NCBI GenBank assembly: GCA_963779415.1
Contig: CAVZYA010000001.1
Coordinates: 704,001-768,000, forward strand
Reading direction: 5' to 3'
Length of the DNA: 64,000 nt
DNA from: an uncultured Acidobacteriota bacterium
Lineage (GTDB): Bacteria; Acidobacteriota; Thermoanaerobaculia; UBA5066
A program made the position numbers and the translations under genes. Below the pieces are notes generated by a model, which was not told the origin of the DNA, did not search any database, and saw nothing but the letters and a program-made list of their open reading frames with translations. This document shows, piece by piece, positions 8,700 through 39,090 of this stretch (position 1 is its first letter; each line of letters begins with the position of its first letter).

Positions 8700-8715
8700 A
8701 GCAACCCCTGTGCCG
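8700..8715 (-). promoter_or_regulatory. Putative sigma-54 promoter of dsrA operon
   Basis: Minus strand CGGCACAGGGGTTGCT: GG-N10-GC with GGCAC and TTGCT; about 120 bp upstream of dsrA ATG. Confidence 0.75.
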
Positions 8716-8807
8716 GCGTGCTCCAGCGCCTCGCGGGGATCTCAAGCGGCCCGATTCCAGCTACTTAGAGGAAGCGGCTACCGAAAGGCCTCCCCGGTGT
8801 CCCGGCT

Positions 8808-8836
8808 CCGTAACCCGGCCGTAACGAGGCCGTAAA
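8808..8836. promoter_or_regulatory. Three 11-bp-phased direct repeats CCGTAA(C/A); candidate activator site
   Basis: ccGTAACccggccGTAACgaggccGTAAA; GTAAC at 8810 and 8821, GTAAA at 8832. Confidence 0.55.
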
Positions 8837-8954
8837 GGACCACTCCCTCCCTGGCCGAAGAACCGGTTGACCGGGGCTGGCGCGCACGACATGCGCCGGA
8901 ACTCCCCCGTTTCCTTCGGCCAAAGGGCGTCACGCCCCTGTAACGGACGGCGCC

Positions 8955-10568
8955 CTAATGGAACTCCCACTCGATGTAGCCGGGCTTGACGTCGGCCATG
9001 GCGTTGACGATCAGCTCGACGAGGCCGCCATAGAGGATCTGGCTCCGGTCGAAGGCGTTGTAAGCCCGGATCAGGTCCCGGAACTGCCCCTTGCAGTTGG
9101 AGCAGGGGGTGCAGACGTACTTGGGAATCGAGGCGTCGAGCTCGCCGGCGAAGGCATCGAGGATCTGCTTCATCTTGATCCGGCCGGAGACGAGCGTCCG
9201 CCAGTTCGCGAAATTGTTTCCCGACATGATGGCGAAGCCGGAGCCCCCGCCGCAGCAGTAATTGTCCACTCCGTGAGGCTCCATCTCGCGGAAGCGCGGC
9301 GCGATCCTGCGAAGCACCCGCCGTGGCGGCTCGATGATCCCCATGGCCCGGGCGATGTTGCAGGGATCGTGGAGCGTGACCGGAAAGTCGTTGCGCGACG
9401 GGTCGAACTTCAGCGCCCCCGATTCGACGATCGCGGCGAGGAAGGGGGCATAGCTCTCGCGCGGCACGGCGAGGTCGGCGCCGAGGATCCGGTCCGCGAC
9501 GACGGCCAGCGCCTTGTGCGCATGGCCGCACTCGCCGATGACGATCTTCTTCACCTTGAGCTTCTTCGCCAGCTCGGCGTGCTTCAGCGCGACGCGGGCG
9601 AACTGGAAGTCGTCGTACCAGAGGCCGTAGTTGATCGCATCGTAGGCGACGATCTCCGAGGAGAGGGTCCACGAGATGCCGGCCTTCTGCATGATGACGG
9701 CGAAGGCTCCGGGGTTCTCGGGCCACGCCATGATCTCGCCGGCGTTGTGCATCAGCAGCACGTCGGCCCCAACCACGTCCCAGGGGGTCTCGACCTTGAA
9801 GCCGACCTTGTCGCTCGTCTCCTCGTCGATGAACTGGATGTTGTCCTTGACGACCTCGGGCGTCATCCCCGTGGACGAGCCGACCTTGAGCTGCAGGACC
9901 GAGCCGTCGGTGTGCGCCTCCCGCGCCGAGATTCCCAGCTCCTGACTGAAGAGCTTGCGCAGTTCGTGGGTCACGAGTCCGTTGTCGACGCCGATCGGGC
10001 AGGCCTGGCAGCAGCGGCGACAGAGGGTGCAGCGGTAGGACAGCTCGGCGAGGCGCGCGAAGGTGTTCCAGTTCAGCTCCGGCGCTCCCACGAGAGCGGC
10101 CTTGACCGGGTTTCCGCCGGGTCCGTACCGGGCGAGGAGCCCGCGCAGGACGTCGGCCCGGTAGCTCGGCCGGTAGACTTCGTTCTGGCCGCTCGTTTCG
10201 TAGATCGGGCAGGCCTCCGCGCAGGTCTGGCAGTGCGTGCAGTGGTCGAGGGTGAGCGTGAGCTGCTGGAGAAATCCCCAGTTGTCCTCGCGGGAGAGGA
10301 GCTTGTGGAGCCCTCTCTTCAGACCTTCCAGAAGCCGCTTCTCCTCGGCGGGGTCTGCCGGCCGCTTCAGAGCGAGTGCGGAGACGCCATCCAGCGACCC
10401 GTCGATTTGCTTGCGCTTCTCGGCCGTCAGCTCTTTCCAGAGAAGCGCCGGGTCGTCCTTGTCGTAGGGGGGCGGCAGCGGGAGGAGACGCTCGAGATCG
10501 ATCGGAGAGAGAGTGTCGGCGTTCCTGGCGATGTCGCGGACGTCCGGAATCGGCGGCTTTTCTGTCAT
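8955..10568 (-). CDS. DsrK-like (DsrK2) heterodisulfide-reductase-type Fe-S protein
   Basis: Two CxxCxxCxxxCP motifs, GECGH, HDPCN, CCGGGSG, CTPCSNCK; ATG 10568 just after the upstream gene's stop. Confidence 0.85.
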   Translation of the reverse strand: MTEKPPIPDVRDIARNADTLSPIDLERLLPLPPPYDKDDPALLWKELTAEKRKQIDGSLDGVSALALKRPADPAEEKRLLEGLKRGLHKLLSREDNWGFLQQLTLTLDHCTHCQTCAEACPIYETSGQNEVYRPSYRADVLRGLLARYGPGGNPVKAALVGAPELNWNTFARLAELSYRCTLCRRCCQACPIGVDNGLVTHELRKLFSQELGISAREAHTDGSVLQLKVGSSTGMTPEVVKDNIQFIDEETSDKVGFKVETPWDVVGADVLLMHNAGEIMAWPENPGAFAVIMQKAGISWTLSSEIVAYDAINYGLWYDDFQFARVALKHAELAKKLKVKKIVIGECGHAHKALAVVADRILGADLAVPRESYAPFLAAIVESGALKFDPSRNDFPVTLHDPCNIARAMGIIEPPRRVLRRIAPRFREMEPHGVDNYCCGGGSGFAIMSGNNFANWRTLVSGRIKMKQILDAFAGELDASIPKYVCTPCSNCKGQFRDLIRAYNAFDRSQILYGGLVELIVNAMADVKPGYIEWEFH

Positions 10569-10569
10569 C

Positions 10570-11475
10570 TCAGGAATCCCCTCTCTCGACAACGGCATCG
10601 GCCCAGGTCTTTTTGCCGTCCCCCTTGATGTGCGGAGCCGACCAGGAGATCGGCAGCAGCAGGAGCTTCCCCACTTTCTTGTCGTACTTCCCGTCGAGAT
10701 TCGGGGCGTCGTCCCAGCGGACGGAATGCCAGGTGAAGTACTTGGCGAAAAAGTGCGTCATGTGACTCCAAGGCAGATAGGCGAGGAAGAGACCGAGAAG
10801 CAGAACCTGCGCGGCGAACCAGGCCGGGATGCCGGTCACGGGCGTGAAGGTCACGAGCCCGTGCGCGAACGTCGCGGCCACGACGAGCTGCGGATCCGCC
10901 CAGAGGAGGCTTCCCCAGGAAGCAAAAAAGACCGCCAGGAGCAGCTCGAGGTGGAGAAAGTCTGCCGGTGTCGACGCCCGACGCAGGCCGGGACTCAGAG
11001 CGCGGCGCGCGAGCAGGCCCAGGCTGCCGAGGGTAGCCAGGGTGAGGCCGACGCCGCACCAGAGGGCCAGCACACGCCCCCCGCCGAGGCGCCAGAGTCC
11101 CGGAAGGCCGCGTACGCCCGGGATCGCGCCGACGAAGAGAGCCCCCCCCAGGCCGAAGAGCAGATAAAGGCCGTAGTGGAAGAGCAGCGAAGGGAGCCAG
11201 AGGCCGGGGTTGTGCTCCCTCACCTGCTTCAGGGTCAGCACCTCCTCGGCGATGGTCTTTACCTCGCCCAGCTTCGACACCTCCCGTGGCTTGGTCCACC
11301 AGTCCAATTCCTCGAAATACGATCCGCCGTAAGCCGCCTTCCCCTTTTCGTGGGCCACGGGGTAGAGCTCCCACCGCAGATGCTGCGGCATCCGGGCGTA
11401 GTGGACCGCCTTGTAGAGGCACCCCCCTACGAACCCGAGGAACGCGAGAGCAGCCAGAATCTGGACCAGTCCCAT
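10570..11475 (-). CDS. DsrM/NarI-like membrane cytochrome b (DsrM2)
   Basis: ATG 11475 with GGAGGAGG RBS; HLRWELYPVAHE, about 5 TM helices, FHYGLY, YLPWSHMTHFF; coupled to DsrK-like gene. Confidence 0.8.
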   Translation of the reverse strand: MGLVQILAALAFLGFVGGCLYKAVHYARMPQHLRWELYPVAHEKGKAAYGGSYFEELDWWTKPREVSKLGEVKTIAEEVLTLKQVREHNPGLWLPSLLFHYGLYLLFGLGGALFVGAIPGVRGLPGLWRLGGGRVLALWCGVGLTLATLGSLGLLARRALSPGLRRASTPADFLHLELLLAVFFASWGSLLWADPQLVVAATFAHGLVTFTPVTGIPAWFAAQVLLLGLFLAYLPWSHMTHFFAKYFTWHSVRWDDAPNLDGKYDKKVGKLLLLPISWSAPHIKGDGKKTWADAVVERGDS

Positions 11476-11686
11476 CTCGAACCCTCCTCCTCGGGCGACC
11501 CGAGCGCCCGGTCTCAGGGCGACGTGCCATGAGATCTTCATGCCAGCGTCAGGTTCCGCGCAAGGGAGAGGATCGATCGCGGCGGCGGCCACCCGCGGGG
11601 CACGCGGCTTCTTCCTGTCGGGCCGAGAGACGTCTTCGTGAGAATCCGATGCCGGCTCCGACCGTCGCGGGAGACCGCCGCGCCCG

Positions 11687-11721
11687 GTCACGGCGATGTA
11701 ACCGTTTCCGATCGGTAACGG
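11687..11721. promoter_or_regulatory. GTCAC-N6-GTAAC plus near-perfect palindrome CCGTTTCCGATCGGTAACGG in divergent dsrM2/aprB intergenic region
   Basis: GTCAC 11687, GTAAC 11698, palindrome 11702-11721 with one mismatched pair. Confidence 0.5.
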
Positions 11722-11868
11722 CACCAAGATTCGTCTCAAGTGGCTTCGCGGCCCGCAATTGAAGGGGCGGAGACGCCGGACGGGCCCGTTTCAACGAGAT
11801 CGCGCATTCCGGAAGGTCTCGGGGGCCTTTCTCTCTCCATCTACGCGGGTTGTCCGTATCGGCGTCCG

Positions 11869-11884
11869 TGGCACATGGATTGCG
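11869..11884 (+). promoter_or_regulatory. Putative sigma-54 promoter of aprBA-qmoABC-sat
   Basis: TGGCACATGGATTGCG, near-consensus TGGCAC-N5-TTGC, 150 bp upstream of aprB. Confidence 0.8.
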
Positions 11885-12033
11885 GAGCCTGCCGATCCGG
11901 AGAGTGTTCGCCGGCTCTCCGAAATTCTGCGCGGGAGGTGATGAAAGAGGCACGGATGAGAACGCGGCCCTCGGCGGTGGATCGACCGCCAGATATTTCA
12001 GCGAGCCCTCGAGGCCTTAAGGAGGAGTTATAG

Positions 12034-12471
12034 ATGCCCAGTTTCGTGAACCCGGAAAAATGCGACGGGTGCAAGGCGCTTGACAAGACCGCCTGCCAGT
12101 ACATCTGCCCGAACGACCTCATGGTCCTCAACAAGGAGACCATGAAGGCCTACAACCAGGAGCCGGAGATGTGCTGGGAGTGCTACAACTGCGTCAAGAT
12201 CTGCCCCACCCAGGCGGTTGACGTGCGCGGTTACGCGGACTTCGTCCCGATGGGCGCTTCGGTGGTCCCCCTGCGCTCCACCGACAGCATCATGTGGACG
12301 GTGAAGTTCCGCAACGGCACGATCAAGCGCTTCAAGTTCCCCATCCGCAGCACACCCGAGGGCCAGGCGAAACCCGATGGCGGCTTCAACGGTGCGCCGC
12401 CGATCGATGGGCCGGTCCTCTTCACCGAACCCGATTCCCTCGGCCTGCCCGCCGTGTGGACGAAAGCCTGA
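12034..12471 (+). CDS. aprB: Adenylylsulfate reductase beta subunit
   Basis: MPSFVNPEKCDGCKALDKTACQYICP...CWECYNCVKICP...VRGYADF; AAGGAGG RBS. Confidence 0.98.
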   Translation: MPSFVNPEKCDGCKALDKTACQYICPNDLMVLNKETMKAYNQEPEMCWECYNCVKICPTQAVDVRGYADFVPMGASVVPLRSTDSIMWTVKFRNGTIKRFKFPIRSTPEGQAKPDGGFNGAPPIDGPVLFTEPDSLGLPAVWTKA

Positions 12472-12481
12472 GGAGGCGGAC

Positions 12482-14389
12482 ATGGCAGACTTCAAAACCG
12501 TTCAGGTCGAAACCGATCTGCTCATCCTCGGTGGCGGAATGGCCGCGTGCGGCGCCGCCGTCGAGGCGGCGTACTGGGGGAAGAAGCACGGCCTCAAGGT
12601 GACGCTCGTCGACAAGGCCGCGGTGGATCGCTCGGGCGCCGTCGCCATGGGACTCTCCGCCATCAACCAGTACGTCGGTCTCAAGGATGGCCAGAACACT
12701 ATCAAGGACTACGTCGACTACGTTCGAAACGATCTCATGGGTGTCACCCGTGAGGACCTCGTGGCCAACATCGCCCGACACGTGGACTCCTCGGTCCACC
12801 TGTTCGAGAAGTGGGGACTCCCGATCTGGAAGGACGAGAAAGGCGCATACGTCCACGAAGGCCGCTGGCAGCTGATGATCAACGGCGAGTCGTACAAGGT
12901 CGTCGTGGCCGAGGCCGCCAAGAACGCGATCGGCAAGGAGAACATCTACGAGCGCGTCTTCATCGTCGGCCCCATCCTCGAAGACGGGCGGTGCGTCGGC
13001 GCGTACGGCTTCTCCGTACGCGAGAACACCTTCTACGTCTTCAAGGCGAAGGCGGTCATTACCGCCATGGGCGGCGCCGTCCACGTCTTCAAGCCGAGGT
13101 CTTCCGGCGAAGGCCAGGGGCGCGCTTGGTATCCGCCCTGGAACGCCGGCGCCTCCGCGTACTTCACCCTCAAGGCAGGGGCCGAAATGACCTGCCAGGA
13201 GGTCCGATTCATCCCGGTCCGGTTCAAGGACGCCTACGGCCCGGTCGGCGCCTGGTTCCTGCTGTTCAAGTCCCGCGCCACGAACGGGCTAGGCGAGAAC
13301 TACATGGAGACGCGCAAGGCCGAGCTCGACAACTGGAAGCCGTACGGGCACGTCAAGCCGGTCCCGGCGAACCTCCGCAACTACCTCATGCTGCTGGACG
13401 TCATGGAGGGCAAGGGCCCGATCTCCATGCGGACCGAGGAGGCGATCCAGAAGATCGCCGCGGGCGCAGGGGACGAGAAGGCAGCCAAGAAGAAGCTCAA
13501 GGAGCTGGAGTCCGAGGCCTGGGAAGACTTCCTCGACATGACGATCTCCCAGGCCATCCTCTGGGCGGCCTCGAACGTGTCGCCGGAGGAGAAGGCGTCC
13601 GAAATCGCGGCGGCGGAGCCGTACTTCATCGGCTCACACTCCGGCGCCTCCGGCGCCTGGGTGTCGGGTCCCGAGGATCTCGCCCCCAAGGATTACTTCT
13701 GGGGCTACGACAACATGTCCACCGTGCGCGGCCTCTTCTGCGCCGGCGACGCCTCGGGCGCCTCGTCGCACAAGTTCTCTTCCGGCTCGCACGCGGAAGG
13801 GCGGATCGCCGCCAAGGCGGCTGTCCGGTTCATCGTCAAGGAGAAGATCGCGGCCCCCAAGGTGGACGCGGCGAAGATCGATCAGCTCAAGGCAGAGGTT
13901 CTGAAGCCGCTGAAGACCTTCGAGGAGTTCAAGGGCGCCACGACGCAGACCGACGTCAACCCCAATTACATCCGACCCAAAATGTTCCAGATGCGCCTGC
14001 AGAAGCTGATGGACGAGTACGCGGGGGGCGTGACAACGCAGTTCACCACCTCCGAGGTGCTTCTCAAGAGGGGCCTGGAGCTGCTCGCGTTCCTCAAGGA
14101 AGACTCGGCGAAGCTGGGCGCTTCCGATCTCCACGAGCTGATGCGCTGCTGGGAGAACGTTCACCGCATGTACCAGGCCGAGGCCCACGTCCGTTCGATC
14201 CTCTTCCGCGAGGAGACGCGCTGGCCCGGCTATTACTTCCGCTCCGACAAGCCCCGGATGGACGAGAAGAACTGGCACGTGTTCGTGAACTGCCGTCTCA
14301 ACGCCACGACCAACGAGTGGGAGATGACCAAGCGACCCATCGTTCATTCGTTCTCGAAGCCCGGGGAGCAGGAGCTCCTCGGTGGCTGA
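12482..14389 (+). CDS. aprA: Adenylylsulfate reductase alpha subunit
   Basis: RSGAVAMGLSAIN, WQLMINGESYK, RFKDAYGPVGAWFL, EDFLDM, HKFSSGSHAEGR, EETRWPGYY. Confidence 0.98.
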   Translation: MADFKTVQVETDLLILGGGMAACGAAVEAAYWGKKHGLKVTLVDKAAVDRSGAVAMGLSAINQYVGLKDGQNTIKDYVDYVRNDLMGVTREDLVANIARHVDSSVHLFEKWGLPIWKDEKGAYVHEGRWQLMINGESYKVVVAEAAKNAIGKENIYERVFIVGPILEDGRCVGAYGFSVRENTFYVFKAKAVITAMGGAVHVFKPRSSGEGQGRAWYPPWNAGASAYFTLKAGAEMTCQEVRFIPVRFKDAYGPVGAWFLLFKSRATNGLGENYMETRKAELDNWKPYGHVKPVPANLRNYLMLLDVMEGKGPISMRTEEAIQKIAAGAGDEKAAKKKLKELESEAWEDFLDMTISQAILWAASNVSPEEKASEIAAAEPYFIGSHSGASGAWVSGPEDLAPKDYFWGYDNMSTVRGLFCAGDASGASSHKFSSGSHAEGRIAAKAAVRFIVKEKIAAPKVDAAKIDQLKAEVLKPLKTFEEFKGATTQTDVNPNYIRPKMFQMRLQKLMDEYAGGVTTQFTTSEVLLKRGLELLAFLKEDSAKLGASDLHELMRCWENVHRMYQAEAHVRSILFREETRWPGYYFRSDKPRMDEKNWHVFVNCRLNATTNEWEMTKRPIVHSFSKPGEQELLGG

Positions 14390-14402
14390 TTCCGGTTCTG
14401 TC

Positions 14403-14438: not shown

Positions 14439-14454
14439 CCCGAGCGAGGTGGGT

Positions 14455-14799
14455 GTGTCTTCAAACAGCCCTGTTCTCACGTGTCCGCACTGCCTGCAAA
14501 CCCTGACGCCGTTTTCGCTTCCCGAGGCGGGCGGCTGGGACACCCCCTTCCAGCTCGCCTGCTTCAACGACGACTGCGCGTACTACGTCCGCGGCTGGAC
14601 GTGGATGGAAGAGCAGTTCGGCGTGAAGAGCTCGTATCGCCATCGCCTCGATCCCGCGTCCGGAACGACCTCTCCGCTCCCGGTCTGGTCGCCGACGGCG
14701 ATCCGCGACCGGATCCTCGAGGCTGACGTGGATGTCGCCGGAGCCGGCGACGCCGACGTGATCCCCGGTGAGGGCGGAAAGAAAGGGAACAAGACATGA
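14455..14799 (+). CDS. Small zinc-ribbon-like protein
   Basis: GTG start; CPHC...W...ACFNDDCAYYVRGW..M...SYR; stop overlaps next ATG. Confidence 0.7.
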   Translation: MSSNSPVLTCPHCLQTLTPFSLPEAGGWDTPFQLACFNDDCAYYVRGWTWMEEQFGVKSSYRHRLDPASGTTSPLPVWSPTAIRDRILEADVDVAGAGDADVIPGEGGKKGNKT

Positions 14800-15584
14800 G
14801 CACGGAGGCCTGCGCCCTTCCCGAGGGTCTGAAGAAACAGAGGCAGCTCGGGAGTGACGAGCCGTTCCGTTTTTCCTGCCACCCGGGCGTGGCCTGCTTC
14901 AACCGCTGCTGCGCCGACGTGAACATCCTCCTGACCCCGCTCGACGTCCTCCGGCTGGCTCGCCGGCGGGGCATGACGACGAAGGAGTTTCTCGACCGGC
15001 ACACTCTCACCCCGATCACGAAGGAGCTTCACCTCCCGCTCGTGATCCTCCGGATGAACGAAGACGAGGGGAAGCGCTGCCCCTTCGTCGGCCCGGAGGG
15101 CTGCACGGTCTACGAAGACCGGCCCTGGGCCTGCCGGATGTATCCGGTTGGGGTGGCGCTCCCGCCGGCCCGCGCGGGTGTGGAGCCGGAGCCGGTCTCC
15201 TTCCTCTTCGAGGACGACTTCTGTCTCGGCCGCGAGGAGGCCCGGCTCTGGACGGTCCCCGCATGGCGGGGCGATCAGCGGGTGGAGGAGCAGGAAGAGA
15301 TCGAAGCGGGATTCCGGGAGATCGTCGGCCATCCCTGGTTCATCGGAGGTCGGCAGCTCGACCCGAAGCGGATGGAGATGTTCTTCATCGCCTGCTACGA
15401 CCTCGATACCTTCCGCCGTCTCGTCTTCCATTCGACCTTTCTCGACCGTTTCGCGGTAGCGCCGGACGTCGTGGAGCGGATGAAAAAGGACGACATCGAG
15501 CTCCTCCGTTTCTCGTTCCGCTGGCTGAAATTCGCTCTCTTCGGCGAGCCCACGATCACGGTCAAGGAGGGGAGGCCGTCATGA
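14796..15584 (+). CDS. YkgJ-family Cys-cluster (zinc/iron-chelating) protein
   Basis: FSCHPGVACFNRCC...CPFV...CTVYEDRPWACRMYP. Confidence 0.8.
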   Translation: MSTEACALPEGLKKQRQLGSDEPFRFSCHPGVACFNRCCADVNILLTPLDVLRLARRRGMTTKEFLDRHTLTPITKELHLPLVILRMNEDEGKRCPFVGPEGCTVYEDRPWACRMYPVGVALPPARAGVEPEPVSFLFEDDFCLGREEARLWTVPAWRGDQRVEEQEEIEAGFREIVGHPWFIGGRQLDPKRMEMFFIACYDLDTFRRLVFHSTFLDRFAVAPDVVERMKKDDIELLRFSFRWLKFALFGEPTITVKEGRPS

Positions 15585-16833
15585 CGGTGCAGCACCCCAA
15601 GCCGATGCTGGTGGTCGGGGCGGGAATCGCCGGCATCACCGCCGCGCTCGAGGCGTCGGAAGCGGGGCGGGAGGTCCTTCTCGTAGAGCGGGAGCCTGCG
15701 GTCGGGGGCCGCGTCCTCAGAAGCTACCACTACTTTCCCAAGCTCTGCCCCCCCTCCTGCGGCATGGAGATCAATACCCGAAGGCTCGAGCGGAACCCCC
15801 GCGTGAAGGTCATGACCGGCTGCCGGGTGACGAAAGCCGCCGTCTCGGACGGCGGCTGGCATGTCACGCTGACCCACTCCCCCGCCTTCGTCAACGAGCA
15901 ATGCACGGCCTGCGGCGACTGCAGCAAGGTCTGTCCGGCGAAGGTCCCCGATCCATTCAACCTGGGAATGAACGAGGCTCCGGCCGTGCGGCTGCCGTTT
16001 CCGAACGCCTGGCCTCGCCGCTTCACGCTGGACCGCCCGGCCTGCCCTCCCGGCTGCCGGGCCTGCGTCGATGCGTGCACGTACAAGGCGATCGACCTCG
16101 CGGCGACGGAGCGCGAGGAGAGCGTGGACGTGGGGGCGGTGGTCATCGCGACCGGATGGCACCCCTACCCGCTGGAAAAGCTTTCGGAGCTGGGAGGAGG
16201 GCTCTTCCCGGACGTGATTCGAACGTCCAGATGGAGCGGCTCGCATCTCCCTCGGGACCGACGGGCGGCAGGATCCTCCGCCCGTCCGACGGGAAGCCGC
16301 CGAAGCATGTGGCTTTCGTCCAGTGCGCCGGGTCGCGGGACGTCAAGCACCTCCCTTACTGCTCGTCGGTCTGCTGCCTCGCCTCGCTCAAGCAGGCGCT
16401 CTACGTCCACGAGCAGCTCCCCGAGACGGAGGTGAGCATCTACTACATCGACCGCCGCACCCCGGGGCGCAACGAGGAGATGCTCACGAAAGTCGCCGCG
16501 ACGAGCGGCGTCAAGCTGATCAAGGGAAAGGTGGGCAAGGTGGAGAAGGGCGACGACGGCGGACTCCGCCTGCGCCTGGAGGACGTCGCCAGCGGACGCC
16601 TCCTCTCGGCCGGTGCGGACCTCGTCGTCCTCGCCACCGGCATGGTCCCCAATCTCTCCGCCGATGCCCTTCCCTTCCCGGTCACCCGGGACGACGACGG
16701 CTTCTGCCTCGACAGCCCGGAATCGAGTCTCTGCGTCGCCGGCGTGGCCCGGCGCCCCGAGGACGTCGCCGCCTCGGTGCGGGACGCCACCGGGGCCGCC
16801 GCGAAGGCCTTCGTGGCCGGAAGGAGGGCGTGA
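15581..16833 (+). CDS. qmoA: QmoA (HdrA-like flavoprotein); frameshift at about 16220
   Basis: VVGAGIAG, YFPKLCPPSCG, CTACGDCSKVCP, then in another frame NVQMERL, FVQCAGSRD...YCSSVCC. Confidence 0.9.
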
Positions 16834-19077
16834 TGCAGCGCCCCGGCGTCTTCCTCTGCAGCGGCTGCGGCATCGGCGAAGCCATCAAGCTCGATGGTCT
16901 CGCCGAAGCGGCGGAGCTCGGAAAGATCCCCTGCACGATCCACCCCTGCCTCTGCGCTCCCGAGCCGGTCGCGGCGATGCGCGCCGCCGTGGAGAGCGGC
17001 GAGCTGGACGCGCTCCTCGTGGGAGCCTGTTCGCCGCGCGCCAAAGTCGCCGAGTTCCGCTTCGACCCCGAGAAGGCCGCCGTGGAGCGGGTCGCGCTGA
17101 GAGAGCAGGTGGCCTGGTCACACCCGGCGGGCGCGGATGACACCCAACTGCTGGCCGAGGACCTTCTCCGGATGGGGCACGCACGGCTCCAGAGAATCTC
17201 TCCGCCGAAGCCTTTCGCCGAAAACATCGAACGGACGATCCTGATCGTGGGAGGCGGCGTGGCCGGCCTTTCGGCCGCACAGGCCGCCGCCGGAGCGGGC
17301 CACCCGGTCGTCCTCGTCGAGTCGACCGAGCGGCTGGGAGGGCATCTCGCCGAGGGTAAAGACGTGGTGCCGGAGCGGCCCCCGTACGACGCCCCGCAGC
17401 CGAACCAGGTTTCGGAGCTGATCGGCAAGGTGGCGGCTCATCCGGCCGTCCGGGTCTTCACATCGACCCGGATCCGGGAGATCAACGGGCAGCCCGGTCA
17501 GTTCAAGGTGGAACTCCAGACGCCGGGAGGCGTGGAGGCCTTCACCGCCGGTGCCATCGTTCAGGCGACCGGAGCCCACCCCTACGACGCGAAGAAGCTC
17601 TCCCATCTCGGATACGGCGTCTCGCCGAACGTGGTCACGTCCCACGAGCTGGAGGCGATGCTCAAGGAGGGGAAGCTCCGGCGGCCTTCCGACGGGAAGC
17701 TTCCCGGGAGAATCGTCTTCGTCCAGTGCGCCGGATCTCGCGACCCGGCACACCTTTCCTACTGCTCCGCCGACTGCTGCGGGACCACCCTGAAGCAGGT
17801 CGCGGTGATCGGACGCGACTTTCCGGATGTGGAATGCGCCGTCGTCTACAAGGACATCCGGACCCCCGGAACGCTCGAACATTTCTACCGGTCCGTCCAG
17901 GACCACCCGGGGCGCCTCTTCGCCCGGGGGGAAGTGGAGAAGGTCGAAGGGAACGGCCATCTCACCGTCCGGCTGCGCGAGAGCCTTCTCGGCGACGCCT
18001 GCGACCTCTCGGCCGACCTCGTCGTCCTGGCAGTGGGGATGGTGCCCAACTCCGCCGACGGCGAGGCGATCCGCACACTCCACGACGCCCAGCGGCGAGC
18101 CGAGCGCGGCGAATCGGAGACACAGCGGGAAGAGGCGCGCAAGATTGCGGCCTCTCTCATCCAGCACGAAGGGACGGAGATCCTGAACCTGGGCTACCGC
18201 CAGGGACCGGACCTGCCGGTTCTCGCTTCCTCCTTCAACGACTCCCACTTCATCTGCTTCCCGTACGAGACCCGGAGGACCGGCATCTACGCCGCCGGTG
18301 CGCTGCGGGCTCCGATGGACGCCGCCCAGGCGACCGAGGACGGATGGGGCGCCGCGATGAAAGCGATCCAGGTCATCTCCGCGGCGGAACGGGGCGAGGC
18401 CGTTCACCCGCGATCGGGAGACCTCGGCATTCCCGATTTCTTCATGCAACGGTGCACGCAATGCAAGCGCTGCACCGAGGAGTGCCCGTTCGGAATGCTC
18501 AACGAGGACGAGAAGGGGACGCCCCAGCTCAACCCGCTCCGGTGCCGCCGCTGCGGCATCTGCATGGGCGCCTGTCCCGAGCGGATCATCTCCTTCCCGG
18601 ACTACTCCGTGGACATCGTGGCCAGCATGATCAAGGCGATGAGCGTCCCGGACGAGTCCGAGGAGAAACCCCGGATCGTCGCGCTGATGTGCGAGAACGA
18701 CGCGATCCCCGCCCTCGACGCCGCCGCCGCCATGCGCAAGAGCTGGAACCCGTGGGTGCGCGTCATCCCGATACGCTGCCTCGGCTCGACCAACATCGTC
18801 TGGATCGCCGACGCGCTCTCCCGCGGGATCGACGGCGTCATGCTCGTCGGCTGCAAGTCGGGCGACGACTACCAATGCCACTATGTGCGCGGCTCCCAGC
18901 TCGCCCAGACCCGGCTTACGAACGTGCAGGAGACGCTGACCCGCCTCGCCCTCGAGCCGGAACGGATCAAGGTTGTGGAGCTCTCTCACGACGAATTCGA
19001 CCGCATTCCCGGAGGTCCTCGACGCCTTCTCGAAAACGATCGAGGATCTCGGCCCGAACCCGCTGAAGGGGTTCTGA
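16833..19077 (+). CDS. qmoB: QmoB (HdrA/MvhD fusion); frameshift at about 19010
   Basis: CSGCGIG, LREQVAWSH, FVQCAGSRD, HFICFPYETRRTGIY, CTQCKRCTEECPFG, MvhD-like CENDA...RCLGS...GDDYQCH; corrected C-terminus GPNPLKGF*. Confidence 0.92.
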
Positions 19078-21534: not shown

Positions 21535-22074
21535 GTGAGGCTCGGGGCGCGTTCCCGCTGTGCTCTGCGGATGATGTGGGAGATCAGCCGCCTCGGCGGC
21601 GAGAGCGGCCCCGTGAGCCTTTCTGCCGTGTCTAGGCGGTGCCACATCCCCCGGAACAGCCTCGCTCCGCTGGCGCTCGCTCTGCGGAACCGCGGACTTC
21701 TCGAGGGAGTCCGCGGCAGCCGCGGCGGCTACCGCCTGGGCCGGCCGGTCGGCAAGATCGGCCTCGGAGAGATCATCGAAGCGTCCACCGGTCCCGTCAA
21801 CATCGTCGAATGCGTGGAAGACCCCGCCGCTTGCCTCGGCAGCGACGACTGCAACTGCCGACGGATGTATGCGCTTCTGAACCGCCGCATCAAGGAGGTG
21901 CTGGACAGCGTCACCCTTGGCGACATGCAGGATCCGGCCTGGAATCGGTCCGGAAACGCAACCCGACCGACGGGAGCGGGGGTTGGCACATTCGTTCCTC
22001 CCGACCGGAGCCACCTCAGGAAAGAGTTGAAGACCGGCTCGCTGCGCCTCGCCGCCCATGAGGCCGGGCGTTGA
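21535..22074 (+). CDS. Rrf2-family transcriptional regulator with Cys cluster ligands
   Basis: GTG start; RLGARSRCALR, RGSRGGYRL, ECVEDPAACLGSDDCNC. Confidence 0.85.
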   Translation: MRLGARSRCALRMMWEISRLGGESGPVSLSAVSRRCHIPRNSLAPLALALRNRGLLEGVRGSRGGYRLGRPVGKIGLGEIIEASTGPVNIVECVEDPAACLGSDDCNCRRMYALLNRRIKEVLDSVTLGDMQDPAWNRSGNATRPTGAGVGTFVPPDRSHLRKELKTGSLRLAAHEAGR

Positions 22075-29152: not shown

Positions 29153-29163
29153 GGGAATGTCGA

Positions 29164-30925: not shown

Positions 30926-30941
30926 AGCAAGGTCGCTGCCA
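30926..30941 (-). promoter_or_regulatory. Putative sigma-54 promoter
   Basis: Minus strand TGGCAGCGACCTTGCT (GG-N10-GC), 29 bp upstream of the TTG start. Confidence 0.75.
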
Positions 30942-31015: not shown

Positions 31016-31052
31016 CCGTAACGAGGGTCGAGGGCTGTAACCCCGAGGTAAC
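31016..31052. promoter_or_regulatory. GTAAC repeats; candidate activator site
   Basis: CCGTAACGAGG (identical to 8819-8829) and GTAAC-N6-GTAAC at 31037/31048. Confidence 0.55.
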
Positions 31053-31994: not shown

Positions 31995-32107
31995 GTTGAG
32001 AATCGCAACTCGGCGCTGAGTTCCTCAACACATCAACAGTTCGCGAAAAAGCCCGGCAGGCCGAGCATCTTAAAGGTTTGGCCGTTGAGACCGTAGAAAT
32101 ACTCAAC
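31995..32107. promoter_or_regulatory. Repeated GTTGAG-N3-CTCAAC-like palindromes; candidate enhancer sites
   Basis: GTTGAGAATCGCAAC 31995, GCTGAGTTCCTCAAC 32015, GTAGAAATACTCAAC 32093 in an AT-rich intergenic region. Confidence 0.5.
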
Positions 32108-32196: not shown

Positions 32197-32212
32197 TGGC
32201 TCAGGTAATGCA
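32197..32212 (+). promoter_or_regulatory. Putative sigma-54 promoter (weaker match)
   Basis: TGGCTCAGGTAATGCA, GG-N10-GC, preceded by an AT-rich tract. Confidence 0.55.
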
Positions 32213-32238
32213 CTTACCGGGCTGCCATGAGAAACCCG

Positions 32239-32602: not shown

Positions 32603-33496
32603 ATGTCTTTCGACCGACGACAGATCCTGAAACTCGCGGCGGCAGCCGGCGCGGCGGCCGCGTTGCCCGGCCCGGACGCCGAGGCGGCCCTCGCGCGTCC
32701 GTCCAAGGACGCCCGCGCGGTCCTCGTCGACACGACGAACTGCGTCGGCTGCCGTACCTGCGAGATGGCCTGCGCGGAGGCCAACAAGCTTCCCGACCCT
32801 GAGAGCGACGTGGACTTCGGATCGCTCCGGACGACGGGGCCAGACCAGTTCACCGTCGTCAACCAGGGGACCATGAAGAGCCCCGGCGGAGACGACCGGT
32901 TCGCGAAGACCCAGTGCATGCACTGCGTCGAGCCGGCCTGTGCCTCGGGCTGCGTCGTCCGCGCCCTCGAGAAGACGCCGGGCGGCCCGGTCGTCTACCA
33001 CGCGGACCGTTGCCTCGGCTGCCGGTACTGCATGGTCGTCTGCCCGTTCGGAGTCCCGAAATACCAGTACTCGAAGGCCGCCCCGATCGTCCGGAAATGT
33101 ACGTTCTGCGCCGAGCGACAGGCGGAAGGGAAGCCCCCGGCGTGCGCGGAGGCCTGTCCCAACAACGCGCTCGTCTTCGGCAGGCGCGCCGACCTCCTCG
33201 AGGAGGCCCGGCGCCGCATCTGGGGAAACCCCGGAAAGTACGTTCCGAAGATCTACGGCGAGGAGGAAGCCGGCGGGACGAGCTGGCTCTACATCAGCGA
33301 CGTCCCGCTCGAGACGCTCCGCCTCCCGCAGGACGTCGTGAAGTCCACCTATCCCGAGATGGCGGACCGCGCTCTCTCGGCCGTCCCCTTCGTCATCACC
33401 CTCTGGCCCCCTCTCCTGATGGGGCTCTGGGCGGCGAGCAAGCGGAACAAGAAGCTGACGGCCACCGGGACGGCACGCGAGGGAGACCATGAGTGA
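32603..33496 (+). CDS. Tat-exported 4x[4Fe-4S] protein (HybA/NrfC-like) with C-terminal TM
   Basis: DRRQILK signal; CVGCRTCEMAC, CMHCVEPACASGC, CLGCRYCMVVCP, KCTFC...PACAEACP. Confidence 0.9.
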   Translation: MSFDRRQILKLAAAAGAAAALPGPDAEAALARPSKDARAVLVDTTNCVGCRTCEMACAEANKLPDPESDVDFGSLRTTGPDQFTVVNQGTMKSPGGDDRFAKTQCMHCVEPACASGCVVRALEKTPGGPVVYHADRCLGCRYCMVVCPFGVPKYQYSKAAPIVRKCTFCAERQAEGKPPACAEACPNNALVFGRRADLLEEARRRIWGNPGKYVPKIYGEEEAGGTSWLYISDVPLETLRLPQDVVKSTYPEMADRALSAVPFVITLWPPLLMGLWAASKRNKKLTATGTAREGDHE

Positions 33497-34718
33497 GAAC
33501 GTCGTCCCCGCGGGAACGGGCGGCTTCTCCGTCGTTCGCGAAAAGCTCCTCCTCGGCCTCACGCCGAGGGAGTACCTCCGGAGCCTCCTGACGCCCGCCA
33601 ACATCCTGATCACCGCGATTCTCGCGGCCGGGATCCCCTGCCTCGTCCTCCGCTTCGCTAAAGGGCTGGGCGCCGTCACGAATCTCTCGCAGTCCTACCC
33701 GTGGGGCCTCTGGGTCGCCTTCGACGTCATCAGCGGCGTCGCGCTGGCGGCCGGCGGCTACACGGTGGCCTGCGCCGTCTTCATCTTCGGCCAGAAGCTC
33801 TATCTCCCCGTCCTTAGGGCCGCGATCCTGACGGGCTTCCTCGGCTATGTCCTCGTCCTCGTCGGCCTCATCGTCGACCTCGGCCAGCCGTGGCGCCTCC
33901 CCTACCAGTTCTTCCTGACGCCCGGCACGACGGCGGTGATGTACGAGGTCGGCTGGTGCGTCTTCCTCTACCTGATCGTCCTCGCCCTCGAGTTCGCCCC
34001 GACGGCCCTGGAGTGGCTGGGCCTCGACAAGCTGCGCAGGATCCTCGGCCGGGTGACGATCGCCATCATCGTCCTCGGCGTCACTCTCTCGACGCTCCAC
34101 CAGTCCTCCCTCGGAGCCTTCTTCCTGATGGCCCCGGGCAAGCTCCACCCGCTCTGGTATTCGCCATACCTCCCCGTCTTCTTCTTCATCTCCAGCATCG
34201 CGGCGGGGATCGGGATGGTGATCTTCGAGAGCACGGTGTCGCACCGGGTCTTCCAGGACCGCCTCGAGCCGAAAGCGCACGTCGACATCGACGGCATCAC
34301 CCTCGGGCTCTCGCGGGCCGGCGCTCTCGTCCTCTTCGCCTACTTCTTCATCCGGCTGCAGGGCCTCGCCGGCTCGGGCCGCTGGGACCTCCTCGCGACG
34401 GGCTGGGGCGCCTGGTGGGGCCTCGAGATGTTCGGCTTCGTCCTCCTGCCGTCGCTCCTCTTCGCGAACGCCGTGCGTCTCGCCGACGTGAAGCTCGCCC
34501 GGATCGCGGCCGTCCTGACGGTTCTCGGCGTCCTCCTGAACCGCTTCAACGTCTCCCTCATCGCGTTCAACTGGACGCTCCCGAACCGCTACGTGCCGGC
34601 CGCCGCGGAAGTCCTGATCTCCCTGACGATCGTCACGATCGGCGTCGTCATCTTCCGCTGGATCGTCAACCGGATGCCGGTCCTCGCCGGGCACCTCGAC
34701 CAGCGCGGTTCGCACTGA
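33489..34718 (+). CDS. NrfD/PsrC-family membrane subunit (HybB-like)
   Basis: YPWGLW, GVALAAGG, DLGQPWR, LSTLHQSSLG, LHPLWYSP, LNRFN. Confidence 0.9.
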   Translation: MSENVVPAGTGGFSVVREKLLLGLTPREYLRSLLTPANILITAILAAGIPCLVLRFAKGLGAVTNLSQSYPWGLWVAFDVISGVALAAGGYTVACAVFIFGQKLYLPVLRAAILTGFLGYVLVLVGLIVDLGQPWRLPYQFFLTPGTTAVMYEVGWCVFLYLIVLALEFAPTALEWLGLDKLRRILGRVTIAIIVLGVTLSTLHQSSLGAFFLMAPGKLHPLWYSPYLPVFFFISSIAAGIGMVIFESTVSHRVFQDRLEPKAHVDIDGITLGLSRAGALVLFAYFFIRLQGLAGSGRWDLLATGWGAWWGLEMFGFVLLPSLLFANAVRLADVKLARIAAVLTVLGVLLNRFNVSLIAFNWTLPNRYVPAAAEVLISLTIVTIGVVIFRWIVNRMPVLAGHLDQRGSH

Positions 34719-34728
34719 GGAGGCCGCC

Positions 34729-35409
34729 ATGAACGAATACGAGCTTCTCAGCCCGCACGCGACGAAGGCGATCGAATACGGCATCGCCATCGCCTACCTC
34801 CTCCTCTTCATCCCCTACTGGCGCCTCCTGAACGCTCCGTCCCGCTCCCGGGCGGCTTCCGGGTCCTGGCGGTTCGCGGAGTGGTTCTACGTCCCCGAAG
34901 GCATCTTCCTGCACAAGGGGCACGCCTGGGCGCGCCCCGAGCCCCCCGGCGTCGCCGTGGGCCTCGACGATTTCGTGCACGACTTCATCGGGACGATCGA
35001 GGCCGTCGACCTTCCCACCCCCGGCCAGAGGATCAAGCAGGGGCGCAAGGCCTTCGGCATCCGAGCGGGCGGGAAGAGCTTCGAGCTCCGCGCCCCCGTG
35101 AGCGGAACGGTGACCGGCGTGAACGAACGGGCGCTCGCCGATCCCGGCGGGCTTCACGCCGATCCCTACGGCGCGGGCTGGCTCTTCCGCGTGAAGCCGG
35201 ACCGACTCGATCCGAACCTGAAATCTCTCTTCTCGCGAGGGGCCGCGCGGAGGTTCCTCGCCGAGGCGACGGAGTCCCTCTACCTCGCCTTCCATCCCGA
35301 CGCCCTCTCGCTCGCGCAGGACGGCGGCCTCCTCGTCCACGGGATCGCCCGCGAGCTCGACCCGGAGCACTGGGACGACCTCGTCCGGTCGAGCCTTCTC
35401 ACGCGCTGA
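34729..35409 (+). CDS. Membrane-anchored glycine-cleavage-H-like protein
   Basis: N-terminal TM; GHAWAR, VGLDDF, LPTPG, APVSGTVTGVN, DPYGAGWL; no ESxK motif. Confidence 0.8.
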   Translation: MNEYELLSPHATKAIEYGIAIAYLLLFIPYWRLLNAPSRSRAASGSWRFAEWFYVPEGIFLHKGHAWARPEPPGVAVGLDDFVHDFIGTIEAVDLPTPGQRIKQGRKAFGIRAGGKSFELRAPVSGTVTGVNERALADPGGLHADPYGAGWLFRVKPDRLDPNLKSLFSRGAARRFLAEATESLYLAFHPDALSLAQDGGLLVHGIARELDPEHWDDLVRSSLLTR

Positions 35410-35426
35410 AGAAAAGGAGCTCTGCC

Positions 35427-36176
35427 ATGTCGACCCTCATCGAAATCTTCCAGGACGCCGCGATCTTCCTCGGCGGTCTCTCCGTGAGGCTCCTTTTCTT
35501 CCTCGCCGTGCTGGCCGTCTTCCTGATTCCGGTCCTCGCGGTCTTCTACTCCATCGAGGGGATCAAGACCCTCCGGAAGCGGAGCGACGGCAGCACGGAA
35601 GTCATCGGCGGTGTCCGGATCATCCCCCGCCGCCGCTACGCCCCGGGCCACGTGTGGCTCGGACGGCGCCTCCTCGGCGGGCTCCGGGTCGGCCTCGACG
35701 ACCTGGCCCAGCGGCTCTTCCCGAACCTCTCGGCCGTGGAGCTTCCGAAGCCGGGGCGCCTTCTGCGGAAGGGCGAGCCGGCCATCTACCTCCGCTCCGA
35801 AGAGCGCGAGGCGTGGATCCCGTCGCCGATCACGGGCCTCGTCGTCGCCGTCAATCACGCCGTCGAGCGGATGCCGGGGCTTATGAACGCGTCACCGTAC
35901 GGCGGCGGCTGGCTCTTCGCGATGCGCCCTGCGACGATCAGCTATCGCGAGTTTCCCACCGGATCGTCGGCCCGGACCTGGTTCCGGGCCGAGGAGGACC
36001 GCCTCCGGCATACGCTCGAGCATGAGCTCGGCCTTGCCCCGGCCGACGGCGGCCAGCTGATCGATCACCCCGCCACGCTTCTCCCGAACGATCGCTGGGA
36101 GCACGTCGTCACGTCGTTCCTCGGCGGGACCATTCCGAAAGTGGCCGAAGAGGGCCCGGAGAAGAACCCCGCTTAA
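35427..36176 (+). CDS. Second membrane-anchored glycine-cleavage-H-like protein
   Basis: AAGGAG RBS; TM; GHVWL, VGLDDLA, SPITGLVVAVN, SPYGGGWL; no lipoyl Lys. Confidence 0.8.
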   Translation: MSTLIEIFQDAAIFLGGLSVRLLFFLAVLAVFLIPVLAVFYSIEGIKTLRKRSDGSTEVIGGVRIIPRRRYAPGHVWLGRRLLGGLRVGLDDLAQRLFPNLSAVELPKPGRLLRKGEPAIYLRSEEREAWIPSPITGLVVAVNHAVERMPGLMNASPYGGGWLFAMRPATISYREFPTGSSARTWFRAEEDRLRHTLEHELGLAPADGGQLIDHPATLLPNDRWEHVVTSFLGGTIPKVAEEGPEKNPA

Positions 36177-36331
36177 GAGGCCTCGCTGCACCCGCACTCA
36201 AGTACGCCGACGTCATCGGCCGCGGAAGTTACTTCCGGGCCGATGACGGTCTTGGGCCGGCGTCGGCTTTTCGCCCACGCGGAGAGCCGGGTTACCATAG
36301 ATGTACGCCTCGGGAACAAGATGCTCCTACG

Positions 36332-37321
<990 letters not shown>

Positions 37322-37511
37322 GGAACGCCCCCCGCTTCCCTCACCACGTAAACCGGAGCGCCGGCGAACGCCCGTCGATCAGCAGACTGTAGAAATGGGA
37401 CCTGACCCTACTGAACGCTGGTGCTCTTCCTCCCGTTCGGCGCGTCCGTCGGCTCGCGTAGGATCCGGACCGGAGCCTCGAGCGAAGAGGAGCCCGGGAG
37501 GAGCGACGGAG

Positions 37512-37931
37512 ATGAAGAGGAACGCGGCCGAAGGCACCACGTCTCCTTCCCGCCTGATCGACGCGAGGATCAGGGAGCTGGGCGACTGGCGAGGGGAGAT
37601 GCTCAGCCGGCTCCGGTCCCTGATCAGGGAGGCCGACCCCGACGGCGTCGAAGAATGGAAGTGGAACGTCCCGGTCTGGTCGCACGACGGGATCCTCTGC
37701 ACGGGCGAGACGCACAAGAGCGTCGTGAAGCTGACCTTCGCCAGGGGGGCGGCCCTCGAGGACCCGTCGCGCCTCTTCAACTCGAGTCTCGGGGGAAACA
37801 CCCGGCGGGCCATCGATTTCCGCGAGGGAGAGAAGATCGACGGGAAGGCCCTGAAGGCCCTGGTCCGCGCCGCCGTGGCGCTGAACGGCATCGTCAAGCC
37901 GCCCAGGAAAGCGAGTGCCCGAAGGGGATGA
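37512..37931 (+). CDS. DUF1801 (YdhG-like) protein
   Basis: LGDWRGE, EEWKWNVPVW, VKLTFARGAALEDP, FNSSL. Confidence 0.85.
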   Translation: MKRNAAEGTTSPSRLIDARIRELGDWRGEMLSRLRSLIREADPDGVEEWKWNVPVWSHDGILCTGETHKSVVKLTFARGAALEDPSRLFNSSLGGNTRRAIDFREGEKIDGKALKALVRAAVALNGIVKPPRKASARRG

Positions 37932-37938
37932 GGACGTC

Positions 37939-38304
37939 ATGAGGATCCACTACCTCGAGATCGTCACGCGGGAGGTCGACGCCGTGTGCGGGGCCTATGC
38001 AGCCGCGAACGGCGTCCGATTCGGCGAGCCGGACCCGCGGCTTGGCAACGCGCGGACGGCCGAGCTCTCGGGAGGCGGCCTCGTGGGAGTCCGGGCGCCG
38101 CTGCACGAGTCGGAGCAGCCGGTCGTCCGCTCCTACTGGCTGGTCGACGACATCGAGGCGGCGTTCGGCGCGGCCTTGAAGGCCGGCGCCGAGGTCGCCC
38201 ACCCTCCGCTGGAGATCCCGGGCCTCGGATGGTTCGCGATCTACGCAAGGGGCGGAATCCACCACGGGCTCTGGCAGCTCTCCCGTCGCGGCGGCGAGGC
38301 CTGA
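37939..38304 (+). CDS. VOC/glyoxalase-family protein
   Basis: IHYLEIVT, YWLVDDIE, PPLEIPGLGWFAI, HGLWQ. Confidence 0.8.
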   Translation: MRIHYLEIVTREVDAVCGAYAAANGVRFGEPDPRLGNARTAELSGGGLVGVRAPLHESEQPVVRSYWLVDDIEAAFGAALKAGAEVAHPPLEIPGLGWFAIYARGGIHHGLWQLSRRGGEA

Positions 38305-38369
38305 CCCGGGCGCGGCTCGGCGAGGTTCGGATGCGCCACCGCCCGGCCGGTATCATCCCATCCAGACCG

Positions 38370-38918
38370 ATGCCGACCTTCGTCGCTCTTCTGCGCGGCG
38401 TGAACGTGGGGGGCGCCAAGCGCGTGCCGATGGCGGAGCTGAAGAAGCTGCTCGAGGGGCTCGGTTATTCGGACGTCGTGACGCTGCTGAACAGCGGCAA
38501 CGCGGTCTTCCGCACCGCCGGCTCCCCCTCCCGGCTCGCCGCGACGATCGCCGGGGAGATTGAGGCGAAGATGGACGTCGAGGTGCCGGTCGTCGTCAAG
38601 TCGGCCGGGGAGCTTTCGGTCATCGTCTCGGAGAATCCCATTTCCGTGCCGGACGCGGATCAGGCCCGGCTCCTCGTCGCCTTTGCCCGGAACGCGGCCG
38701 CGCTCTCGACCCTTCGGCCCATCGGGTCGCTCGTCGCCCCTCCCGAGCGATTCGCCCTCGGCGCGCACGCGGCGTACCTCTACTCCCCCTTCGGAAGCCT
38801 GAAGAGCGAAGCGGGAAAGGCACTGCTCGGGAGGGCCGGCCGGGCCGCCACGACGCGAAACTGGAAGACGGTCCTGAAACTCCAGGAGCTCGCGGACTCC
38901 ATCGGCGGACGCCGCTGA
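38370..38918 (+). CDS. DUF1697 protein
   Basis: VALLRGVNVGG, LNSGNAVF, TTRNWKT. Confidence 0.88.
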   Translation: MPTFVALLRGVNVGGAKRVPMAELKKLLEGLGYSDVVTLLNSGNAVFRTAGSPSRLAATIAGEIEAKMDVEVPVVVKSAGELSVIVSENPISVPDADQARLLVAFARNAAALSTLRPIGSLVAPPERFALGAHAAYLYSPFGSLKSEAGKALLGRAGRAATTRNWKTVLKLQELADSIGGRR

Positions 38919-39074
38919 GCCGGGAGCGCGTCAGCGCCCCCTGACGGAAACCCGCGAGGCCTCGCGGGTACCCGCGCGTACAAGCAGCGGCCTCGCCCCC
39001 CCTCCGCCGGCGCCCGCCTCCGATTCCCCGCGCCAATCGACGATTCATCGTACAGCTTCCGATTGATTTCGAGC

Positions 39075-39090
39075 TGGCCGGGCGATTGCG
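39075..39090 (+). promoter_or_regulatory. Putative sigma-54 promoter of hydrogenase operon
   Basis: TGGCCGGGCGATTGCG (GG-N10-GC), about 20 bp before first ORF. Confidence 0.6.

Follow-up and report, generated by a model that had tools for sequence, protein, structure and literature searches.

How can a bacterium that carries the genes for dissimilatory sulfate reduction switch them on and off? Model sulfate reducers either express the pathway constitutively or tune it weakly through Rex, and for them no dedicated switch has been described. The question is raised by a stretch of 64,000 nt from an uncultured acidobacterium of the class Thermoanaerobaculia (positions 704,001–768,000 of contig C1 in genome G000, which has 4.36 Mb and 68% GC), referred to here as the window. 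A preliminary description of the window had assigned five GG-N10-GC motifs, taken as sigma-54 promoters, to a single regulon joining the sulfate-reduction pathway to an NrfD module and a hydrogenase. Comparison with related genomes led us to a different model, to which we give a probability of roughly 0.8: the sulfate-reduction genes would form an island with its own sigma-54 switch, run by an NtrC-type regulator whose gene ends the dsr cluster and which acts on a palindrome, GTTAC-N6-GTAAC, that is absent from the preliminary description.

Genes were called with a codon model of our own and named through Pfam and NCBIfam, with dsrD, dsrL and dsrT named by position and domain content. All five 16-mers lie where they had been described and on the same strands, each upstream of an open reading frame (ORF) toward which it points. 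On the minus strand, the site at 8700–8715 (matrix score 14.0) heads the dsrA unit (dsrA-dsrB-dsrD-dsrL-dsrN-...-dsrC-dsrT-dsrMKJOP), which extends past the left end of the window, and the site at 30926–30941 (16.7) heads an operon with cytidylate-kinase-like, DUF202, histidine kinase and REC genes, referred to below as the kinase operon. On the plus strand, the sites at 11869–11884 (18.0), 32197–32212 (10.1) and 39075–39090 (15.5) precede, respectively, aprBA-(two small genes)-qmoABC-sat, the NrfD module (a small ORF followed by HmcB-like, HmcC-like (NrfD) and GcvH-like genes) and a NiFe hydrogenase operon. The first ORF behind the NrfD-module site is small and Cys-rich and starts at 32227, and that behind the hydrogenase site is a small ORF at 39109. 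GG-N10-GC by itself proved unusable as a criterion: the motif occurs 1,353 times in the window, and genome-wide it was rejected for lack of enrichment, with 3,722 matches in 1,985 upstream regions compared to 3,754 in shuffles. The longer form YGGCA-N6-TTGC had 24 upstream matches versus 1.1 in shuffled sequence and 1–6 at wrong spacings, and stricter forms were up to about 20-fold enriched. Sites were then scored with a matrix for which 42 upstream sites from outside the window served as training set. The number of sites in the genome that score as high is 8 for aprB, 14 for the kinase operon, 23 for the hydrogenase, 50 for dsrA and 285 for the NrfD module. By score alone the dsrA site is middling and the NrfD-module site weak, and for this reason we examined their conservation in relatives.

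Conservation was found for all five motifs. When the 80 nearest dsrA loci were examined, 30 proved to have a sigma-54 site at the head of the dsrA unit; of the remaining 50, two offer just 28 nt of upstream sequence, and in many dsrA is internal to a longer operon. GGC and TTGC are present in the dsrA promoters of 30/30 relatives; note that these promoters were picked by pattern, and that the fixed distance of the enhancer described below is the real test. For aprB, 47 genomes gave a match; the sample took the 30 best of them and added G006, G012 and the window, and one locus was excluded as too short. In this sample 31/31 relatives have a site 88–278 nt upstream with a score of at least 8.8, and 28/31 score at least 11, compared to a background of 45/703 and 25/703 regions, respectively, in which the upstream regions were shorter. 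The kinase-operon 16-mer is identical in G001, G006 and G284. The NrfD-module promoter was found in 14/14 dsr-negative relatives, and the hydrogenase promoter is at the same position in the 4/4 closest relatives, all of them dsr- or apr-negative; five more distant hydrogenase loci had no sigma-54 site at that position. The genome contains rpoN alongside about 22 activator genes of the GAFTGA type. Because they are conserved in relatives, the five motifs are probably real sigma-54 promoters. We also identified a sixth sigma-54-type promoter (11530–11545, minus strand), upstream of dsrM2K2, which carries TC for GC at −12; the same variant is present in L002, L003, L009, L011 and L016, and the canonical form in L027 and L062. 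Matches in viral contigs (at least 120 matches, 80 loci examined) appear to be mostly chance, with the −12 element in only 3/81 of them. For 24 dsrA loci of the phylum outside the class (L325–L348), no promoter or enhancer was found within 1.5 kb, a weak negative as dsrA is mostly operon-internal there.

The dsrA, aprB, dsrM2K2 and kinase-operon promoters have in common the palindrome GTTAC-N6-GTAAC. In the window, GTTAC repeats stand upstream of the promoters of dsrA and of the kinase operon; across relatives these resolve into an inverted repeat. The principal dsrA site (8810–8825, one mismatch, score 18.8) is 110 bp upstream of the promoter and is overlapped by a weaker site (8821–8836, 121 bp, score 13.3); a distal site (8929–8944, 229 bp, score 15.5) has counterparts about 220–230 bp upstream in L002, L003, L005, L013 and L016. 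After removal of two near-duplicates from the dsrA promoter set, 25 of 28 promoters have the enhancer site at 108–111 bp and 27/28 have the palindrome somewhere, the sole exception being a spirochaete locus. The divergent aprB and dsrM2 promoters share a conserved pair of sites, one at 11704–11719 (score 19.0; 165 bp from aprB and 174 bp from dsrM2) and one at 11687–11702 (score 13.3; 182 bp and 157 bp), and an enhancer-type site is present in 30/31 aprB upstream regions of relatives. For the kinase operon the site is 111 bp upstream of the promoter (31037–31052, score 19.1) and is conserved in G001, G006, G284, G363 and G152. Comparison across relatives therefore shows these four predicted sigma-54 promoters to have an upstream palindrome, mostly on one helical face.

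The spacing of the palindrome bears on what kind of protein would bind it. Among 119 distinct promoter/enhancer pairs, 53 are at 108–113 bp; the 65 pairs outside 105–115 bp show modest clustering on one helical face (resultant 0.39 at 10.5 bp), although these pairs are not independent. Between the enhancer and the dsrA promoter lies a putative IHF-like A/T element (8735–8770, minus strand), imperfect in this genome. In a profile of 51 promoters, A was found at −49 in 84% and T at −29 to −27 in 57–69%, which resembles the IHF consensus, and the genome has three IHF/HU-family genes. The palindrome could alternatively be the target of a factor independent of sigma-54, such as a repressor or an OmpR-type protein on 11-bp direct repeats, with the sigma-54 promoters being otherwise activated or secondary to sigma-70. 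Several sites in this genome can be read as GTTAC direct repeats with an 11-bp period, the site in front of cysG is not followed by a sigma-54 promoter and overlaps a −10-like sequence, and an Rrf2-family gene directly follows sat (21571–22074). However, the relatives agree on an inverted repeat, and its distance from the −24 element is fixed and roughly in helical phase, which is the classical geometry of an enhancer, and activators also repress at their own promoters, as NtrC does at glnLp. The inverted-repeat consensus led us to reject the OmpR-type direct-repeat reading, and we regard a non-sigma-54 factor in general as very unlikely.

The nine best enhancer sites of the genome include five inside the island defined below, which makes up 1.9% of the genome, and only 4 of 75 good sigma-54 sites are accompanied by an enhancer. 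Outside the window, enhancer-bearing promoters precede a porin gene (C1:615,314), a kinase-like/TauE operon (C1:652,788) and a YeiH/PSE transporter gene (C2:1,266,608); in relatives a gene for a YeiH/PSE transporter is often the first of the dsrA unit. The porin O/P gene (C1:615,314–615,640, L084) is outside the island and carries a duplicated dsrA enhancer, promoter and leader. It would have been recruited into the regulon by promoter duplication and, because its promoter and leader duplicate those of dsrA, does not provide independent evidence. Two other relatives have enhancer-bearing promoters before a different predicted secreted/outer-membrane protein. At 21984–21999 in the window, a decayed sigma-54 promoter lacking an enhancer precedes a REC/kinase-like/TauE operon; elsewhere this operon has an intact promoter with an enhancer at 111 bp (G001) or an enhancer (G284 and G006). 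In L225, L227, L310 and L314/L315 an extra enhancer and sigma-54 promoter precede dsrT, making a separate promoter for dsrT-dsrMKJOP. In L312 (9997–10111, genome G131), an enhancer and sigma-54 promoter are found directly 3' of the regulator gene and about 400 nt ahead of the next convincing gene.

We next consider how far the enhancer extends over the five original promoters. A dsr-negative congener, G003, is collinear with this genome over C1:644,974–652,775 and resumes collinearity at C1:736,218; the 83 kb that separate these stretches here correspond to about 240 bp in G003. These junctions place the island borders at approximately C1:652,780–735,990, and it is quite probable that the sulfate/sulfite-reduction genes constitute an 83-kb island with its own transcriptional switch. 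The NrfD module and the hydrogenase lie to the right of the island, outside it. The proposal that a single activator governs all five promoters, and so couples sulfate reduction to the NrfD module and hydrogenase, draws on the presence of five conserved sigma-54 sites within 31 kb. The enhancer, however, is not found upstream of the NrfD-module and hydrogenase promoters (scores at most 7.6, and at most 7.4 for the NrfD module in the dsr-negative relatives), both promoters persist in dsr-negative relatives, and each has a conserved operator of its own. The NrfD module has a tandem operator of the GTTGAG-N3-CTCAAC type (31995–32029) that is conserved in relatives and marks the right island border. 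The hydrogenase promoter has a tandem operator of the CGG-R-W-W-W-CCG type (38943–38975), identified by alignment and the only such pair found in the genome by the patterns used. In G003, moreover, a different activator operon stands immediately before the NrfD module. The proposal of one regulon, which included the NrfD module and the hydrogenase among the sulfate genes, thus fails for these two, and we judge a single activator highly improbable. Their promoters are better taken as real sigma-54 promoters of what would be a second and a third regulon, and insertion of the island has cut off the NrfD module from the activator operon found ahead of it in G003. A sensor-less activator (36332–37321) adjoins the hydrogenase both here and in dsr-negative G003; this position led us to reject it as the dsr switch and makes it a candidate for the hydrogenase operator.

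To identify the activator of the island we turned to the leftward dsr cluster, which ends outside the window in three minus-strand genes. Following cysG are a phosphite-binding-like (PtxB/AioX-like) binding protein (C1:694,546–695,445), a sensor kinase with an sCache domain (C1:693,068–694,543) and an NtrC-type regulator with REC-AAA+-HTH architecture and a GAFTGA loop (C1:691,695–693,071), the last 11–12 kb left of the window. The kinase gene precedes the regulator gene in 30/30 loci examined. We tested three activator candidates on congeners and on 50 genomes from the dsrA set of 80, namely every one of the 29 that have the enhancer and 21 that lack it. An orthologue of the tail regulator (68–91% identity) was present in 28/29 enhancer-bearing dsr genomes and in 0/21 of the others. 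The activator at C1:651390 (E ≤ 1e-135) was present in 13/29 enhancer-bearing genomes, 8/21 other dsr genomes and 4/6 aprB-negative congeners; it precedes the NrfD module in G003 and was rejected as the dsr switch. A protein atlas search returned generic families only. In a class sample of 301 genomes, 50 had both dsrA and the regulator, 2 had dsrA only, 1 had the regulator only and 248 had neither. One of the two dsrA-only genomes, G134 (98% complete), arranges its cluster differently, and over 14.2 kb neither a promoter nor an enhancer exceeded the threshold; the other, G314, has both promoter and enhancer, and its assembly is fragmented. Searched genome-wide, the combined enhancer and promoter pattern was found in 40/40 regulator-bearing genomes, 24 of which had not been used for motif derivation, and in G006; it was found in 0/23 dsr-negative kin and not in G134, and a reversed control gave 2/80. 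The recognition helix of the regulator is kept in 28/31 sequences, and the three exceptions are truncated or frameshifted ahead of it. These data point to the tail regulator and its sensor kinase as the likely master switch of the sulfate-respiration genes. In one locus, L309 (G224:C57), a second kinase/regulator copy without the binding protein stands under its own enhancer and sigma-54 promoter.

The third candidate was an OrpR-like activator with PAS and Fe-S features, which would read the enhancer in response to redox state while the tail regulator co-travels with the island or provides a second input. Control by redox state would be physiologically sensible. In L037, L040, L067 and L080 the gene immediately upstream of the dsrA enhancer encodes a PAS-AAA-HTH protein with a Cys cluster, and in G298 an activator gene occupies the same place. 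On the other hand, relatives of the PAS activator (E ≤ 1e-125) occurred in 12/29 enhancer-bearing and 13/21 other dsr genomes, showing no association; the query was the activator of this genome (C1:554462), not the f8 paralogue, which is about 50% identical. The genomes with the adjacent PAS gene also carry the tail regulator, and the PAS activator's own target promoter has a GTCTC-N6-GAGAC-type palindrome and no GTTAC site. On the basis of the lack of association and the different operator C1:554462 was rejected as the dsr switch, and we hold the redox reading of the enhancer to be unlikely. The divergent target of the PAS activator, a DsrK-like membrane complex (C1:555,796–556,007, L090), has this conserved palindrome, which represents a fourth operator.

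A potential concern with assigning the palindrome to the tail regulator is that the regulator gene is physically linked to dsrA (approximately 16–21 kb), such that co-transfer alone would give co-occurrence, and that kin are not independent. Linkage and kinship thus inflate the co-occurrence counts, and independent support comes from the recognition helix and from the fit of the palindrome to the box of AioR, the NtrC-type regulator of AioXSR. Several further points also weigh on this side. G006 has the enhancer, but neither regulator nor kinase was found in its assembly (87% complete, 470 contigs). In family f8 a gene for a PAS-type activator adjoins the dsrA enhancer on its upstream side. 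The binding protein is absent in 13/19 further loci, and this genome and two close relatives have lost its STS-H pocket. The enhancer and promoter pattern was also found in 3/15 dsr genomes outside the class that lack the regulator, and two of these three matches, on inspection, lie before the gene of an unrelated protein of 794 aa. The boxes described for AioR are in turn predictions (PMC3673622). Finally, the regulator is 38% identical to AioR and only its second-best match in the genome, and it is not a sister of AioR in an AAA+HTH tree, in which the regulator falls in a separate clade with support of 1.0 and AioR elsewhere with weak support.

In the model that we favor, the palindrome would be bound by the tail NtrC-type regulator after its phosphorylation by the partner kinase in response to a periplasmic cue. 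The regulator would oligomerise on the enhancer, loop to the closed sigma-54 complex, and open that complex with ATP. The whole pathway from sulfate activation to sulfide would in this way be turned on, together with anion transporters and signalling operons, while the NrfD module and the hydrogenase would be resident genes with sigma-54 promoters under the control of two other activators. In 15/30 loci an operator lies before cysG (C1:697,230 in this genome). It suggests autoregulation of an internal promoter, which could provide the basal expression that a tail-encoded activator needs.

The cue, probably a small oxyanion, is the least certain part of the model. Sulfite shares its pyramidal shape with phosphite and arsenite. 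We name sulfite as the best guess, though one more apt to be wrong than right, because the binding protein keeps a phosphite-type pocket in most lineages that have it. The STS-H motif, which binds the phosphite oxygens (PMC5700983), is complete in 12/17 orthologues of the binding protein and is lost in this genome, G284 and G001; the cap residue is Phe rather than Tyr. In genomes such as this one, in which the binding protein has decayed or is missing, the kinase would have to sense by another route. In its fullest form the proposal is of a portable, self-regulating sulfate-respiration island that senses a sulfur oxyanion, most likely sulfite in the periplasm, through a three-component system like AioXSR; we hold this form to be less likely than not.

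For the core pathway, the suggestion in the preliminary description of an off-by-default programme switched by an activator is the best reading of the sequence, because dsrAB-dsrD-dsrL-dsrN-dsrC-dsrT-dsrMKJOP, aprBA-qmo-sat and dsrM2K2 are all preceded by conserved sigma-54 promoters that have an enhancer in common. That the pathway runs toward reduction was assumed from gene content. The accompanying suggestion of a facultative organism holds in part. A heme-copper oxidase operon and the presence of aprB in only 2/60 relatives are in its favor, and optional use of the pathway fits this genome, but the same switch is found where 39/47 family genomes carry dsrA. It is shared by the family of Ca. 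Sulfomarinibacter, which is thought to be a versatile anaerobe (PMC8528874). Among 371 Acidobacteriota, 34 dsrA-bearing genomes fall outside the class and the regulator was found in 1/34, with four candidates scored per genome. The switch is therefore the solution of a lineage and not a mark of facultative life as such, given this low count and the wide occurrence of dsrA in that family. An acidobacterium was shown to silence sulfate reduction under oxic conditions (PMC10564751). For the class, our model predicts that the presence of dsrAB need not mean activity, and that regulator and enhancer together mark one type of dsr cluster. In its fullest and less likely form, with a sensor of a sulfur oxyanion, it would describe the first dedicated signal-sensing activator of the core dsr/apr/qmo/sat genes, in a class that includes abundant marine-sediment Acidobacteria. 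With regulator, kinase, operator and promoter set named, the switch could be rebuilt in E. coli without culturing the host.

Two features of the window concern its genes. The dsrL, qmoA, qmoB and hydrogenase genes are split across frames (4284–5959, 15320–19010 and 39449–42900), as comparison with G284 confirmed for qmoA and qmoB; the splits are probably assembly indels. Two small Cys-rich genes lie between aprA and qmoA (14455–15584).

How does such a switch compare with known systems? In the NtrB/NtrC system at glnALG, a kinase and activator are encoded at the tail of the operon that they activate, with an operator at an internal promoter. The placement of the switch genes at the tail of an activated operon is the same here; signal, operator and targets differ, and sensing here would be periplasmic. 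The sulfate-reduction pathway is constitutive in Desulfobacteraceae (PMC11887813). Rex of Desulfovibrio alaskensis G20 resembles the present system in exerting transcriptional control on sat and qmo and, by prediction, on dsr and apr, but Rex is a repressor, its effects are less than two-fold, and dsrABD/apsAB are unresponsive (PMC4045070, a search of whose supplements gave no start-site rows for dsrA, aprB or sat). The promoter architecture here, in contrast, demands an activator. The preliminary description saw no Rex-like palindrome, and no Rex-like box (up to 3 mismatches) precedes any island gene, including sat, apr and dsr. The genome does have rex (C1:220,059), with Rex-like boxes at C1:231,161, before a nuoA-like gene, and at C1:565,590–565,690, between a divergent pair.

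In D. vulgaris, OrpR (DVU2106) and other sigma-54 regulons likewise use enhancers and drive TSUP and PSE transporters (PMC4641369, PMC8359166), and DVU0744 has TGTTACA/TGTAACA half-sites (PMC4641369). The difference is that here the core pathway itself is the sigma-54 target. The regulome in PMC4641369 has no dsr or apr entry, its text has 0 matches to 'dsr' or 'apr', and five of its supplements have 0 matches to dsr, DVU0402, DVU0846 or DVU1295. Nor was sigma-54 control of dsr or apr reported in the available parts of the literature searched, which included PMC4641369, PMC10564751, PMC8528874, PMC12316311, PMC4045070, PMC11887813 and bioRxiv 10.1101/2023.06.27.546762 and extended to neither subscription papers nor the site tables in the supplements of PMC12316311 and the preprint.

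The closest parallel is AioXSR, which controls the sigma-54 promoter of aioBA in Rhizobium/Pseudorhizobium NT-26 and Agrobacterium (PMC7533571, PMC6011840, PMC3673622). Both systems have the gene order binding protein, kinase, NtrC-type regulator, with a PtxB-like binding protein and sigma-54 targets that encode an oxyanion respiratory enzyme. The palindrome here fits the AioR box, GTTNC-N6-GNAAC (PMC3673622), and the core of the recognition helix is one residue off that of AioR, the only such helix in this genome, although in whole-HTH scoring another activator ties with the tail regulator (101 vs 100). The two systems differ in their targets, which here are dsr/apr/qmo/sat and not aioBA, with enhancers preceding dsr, apr, kinase-like, porin and transporter genes. 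They differ also in that the arsenite-binding Cys of NT-26 AioX is not aligned to a Cys in pairwise comparison, the binding protein is dispensable in many genomes here, and the enhancer lies at about 110 bp rather than 67 bp. By analogy, then, the tail regulator and its partners would work like AioXSR without being a member of that system or orthologous to it, and would represent a known kind of switch newly wired to core dissimilatory sulfur metabolism.

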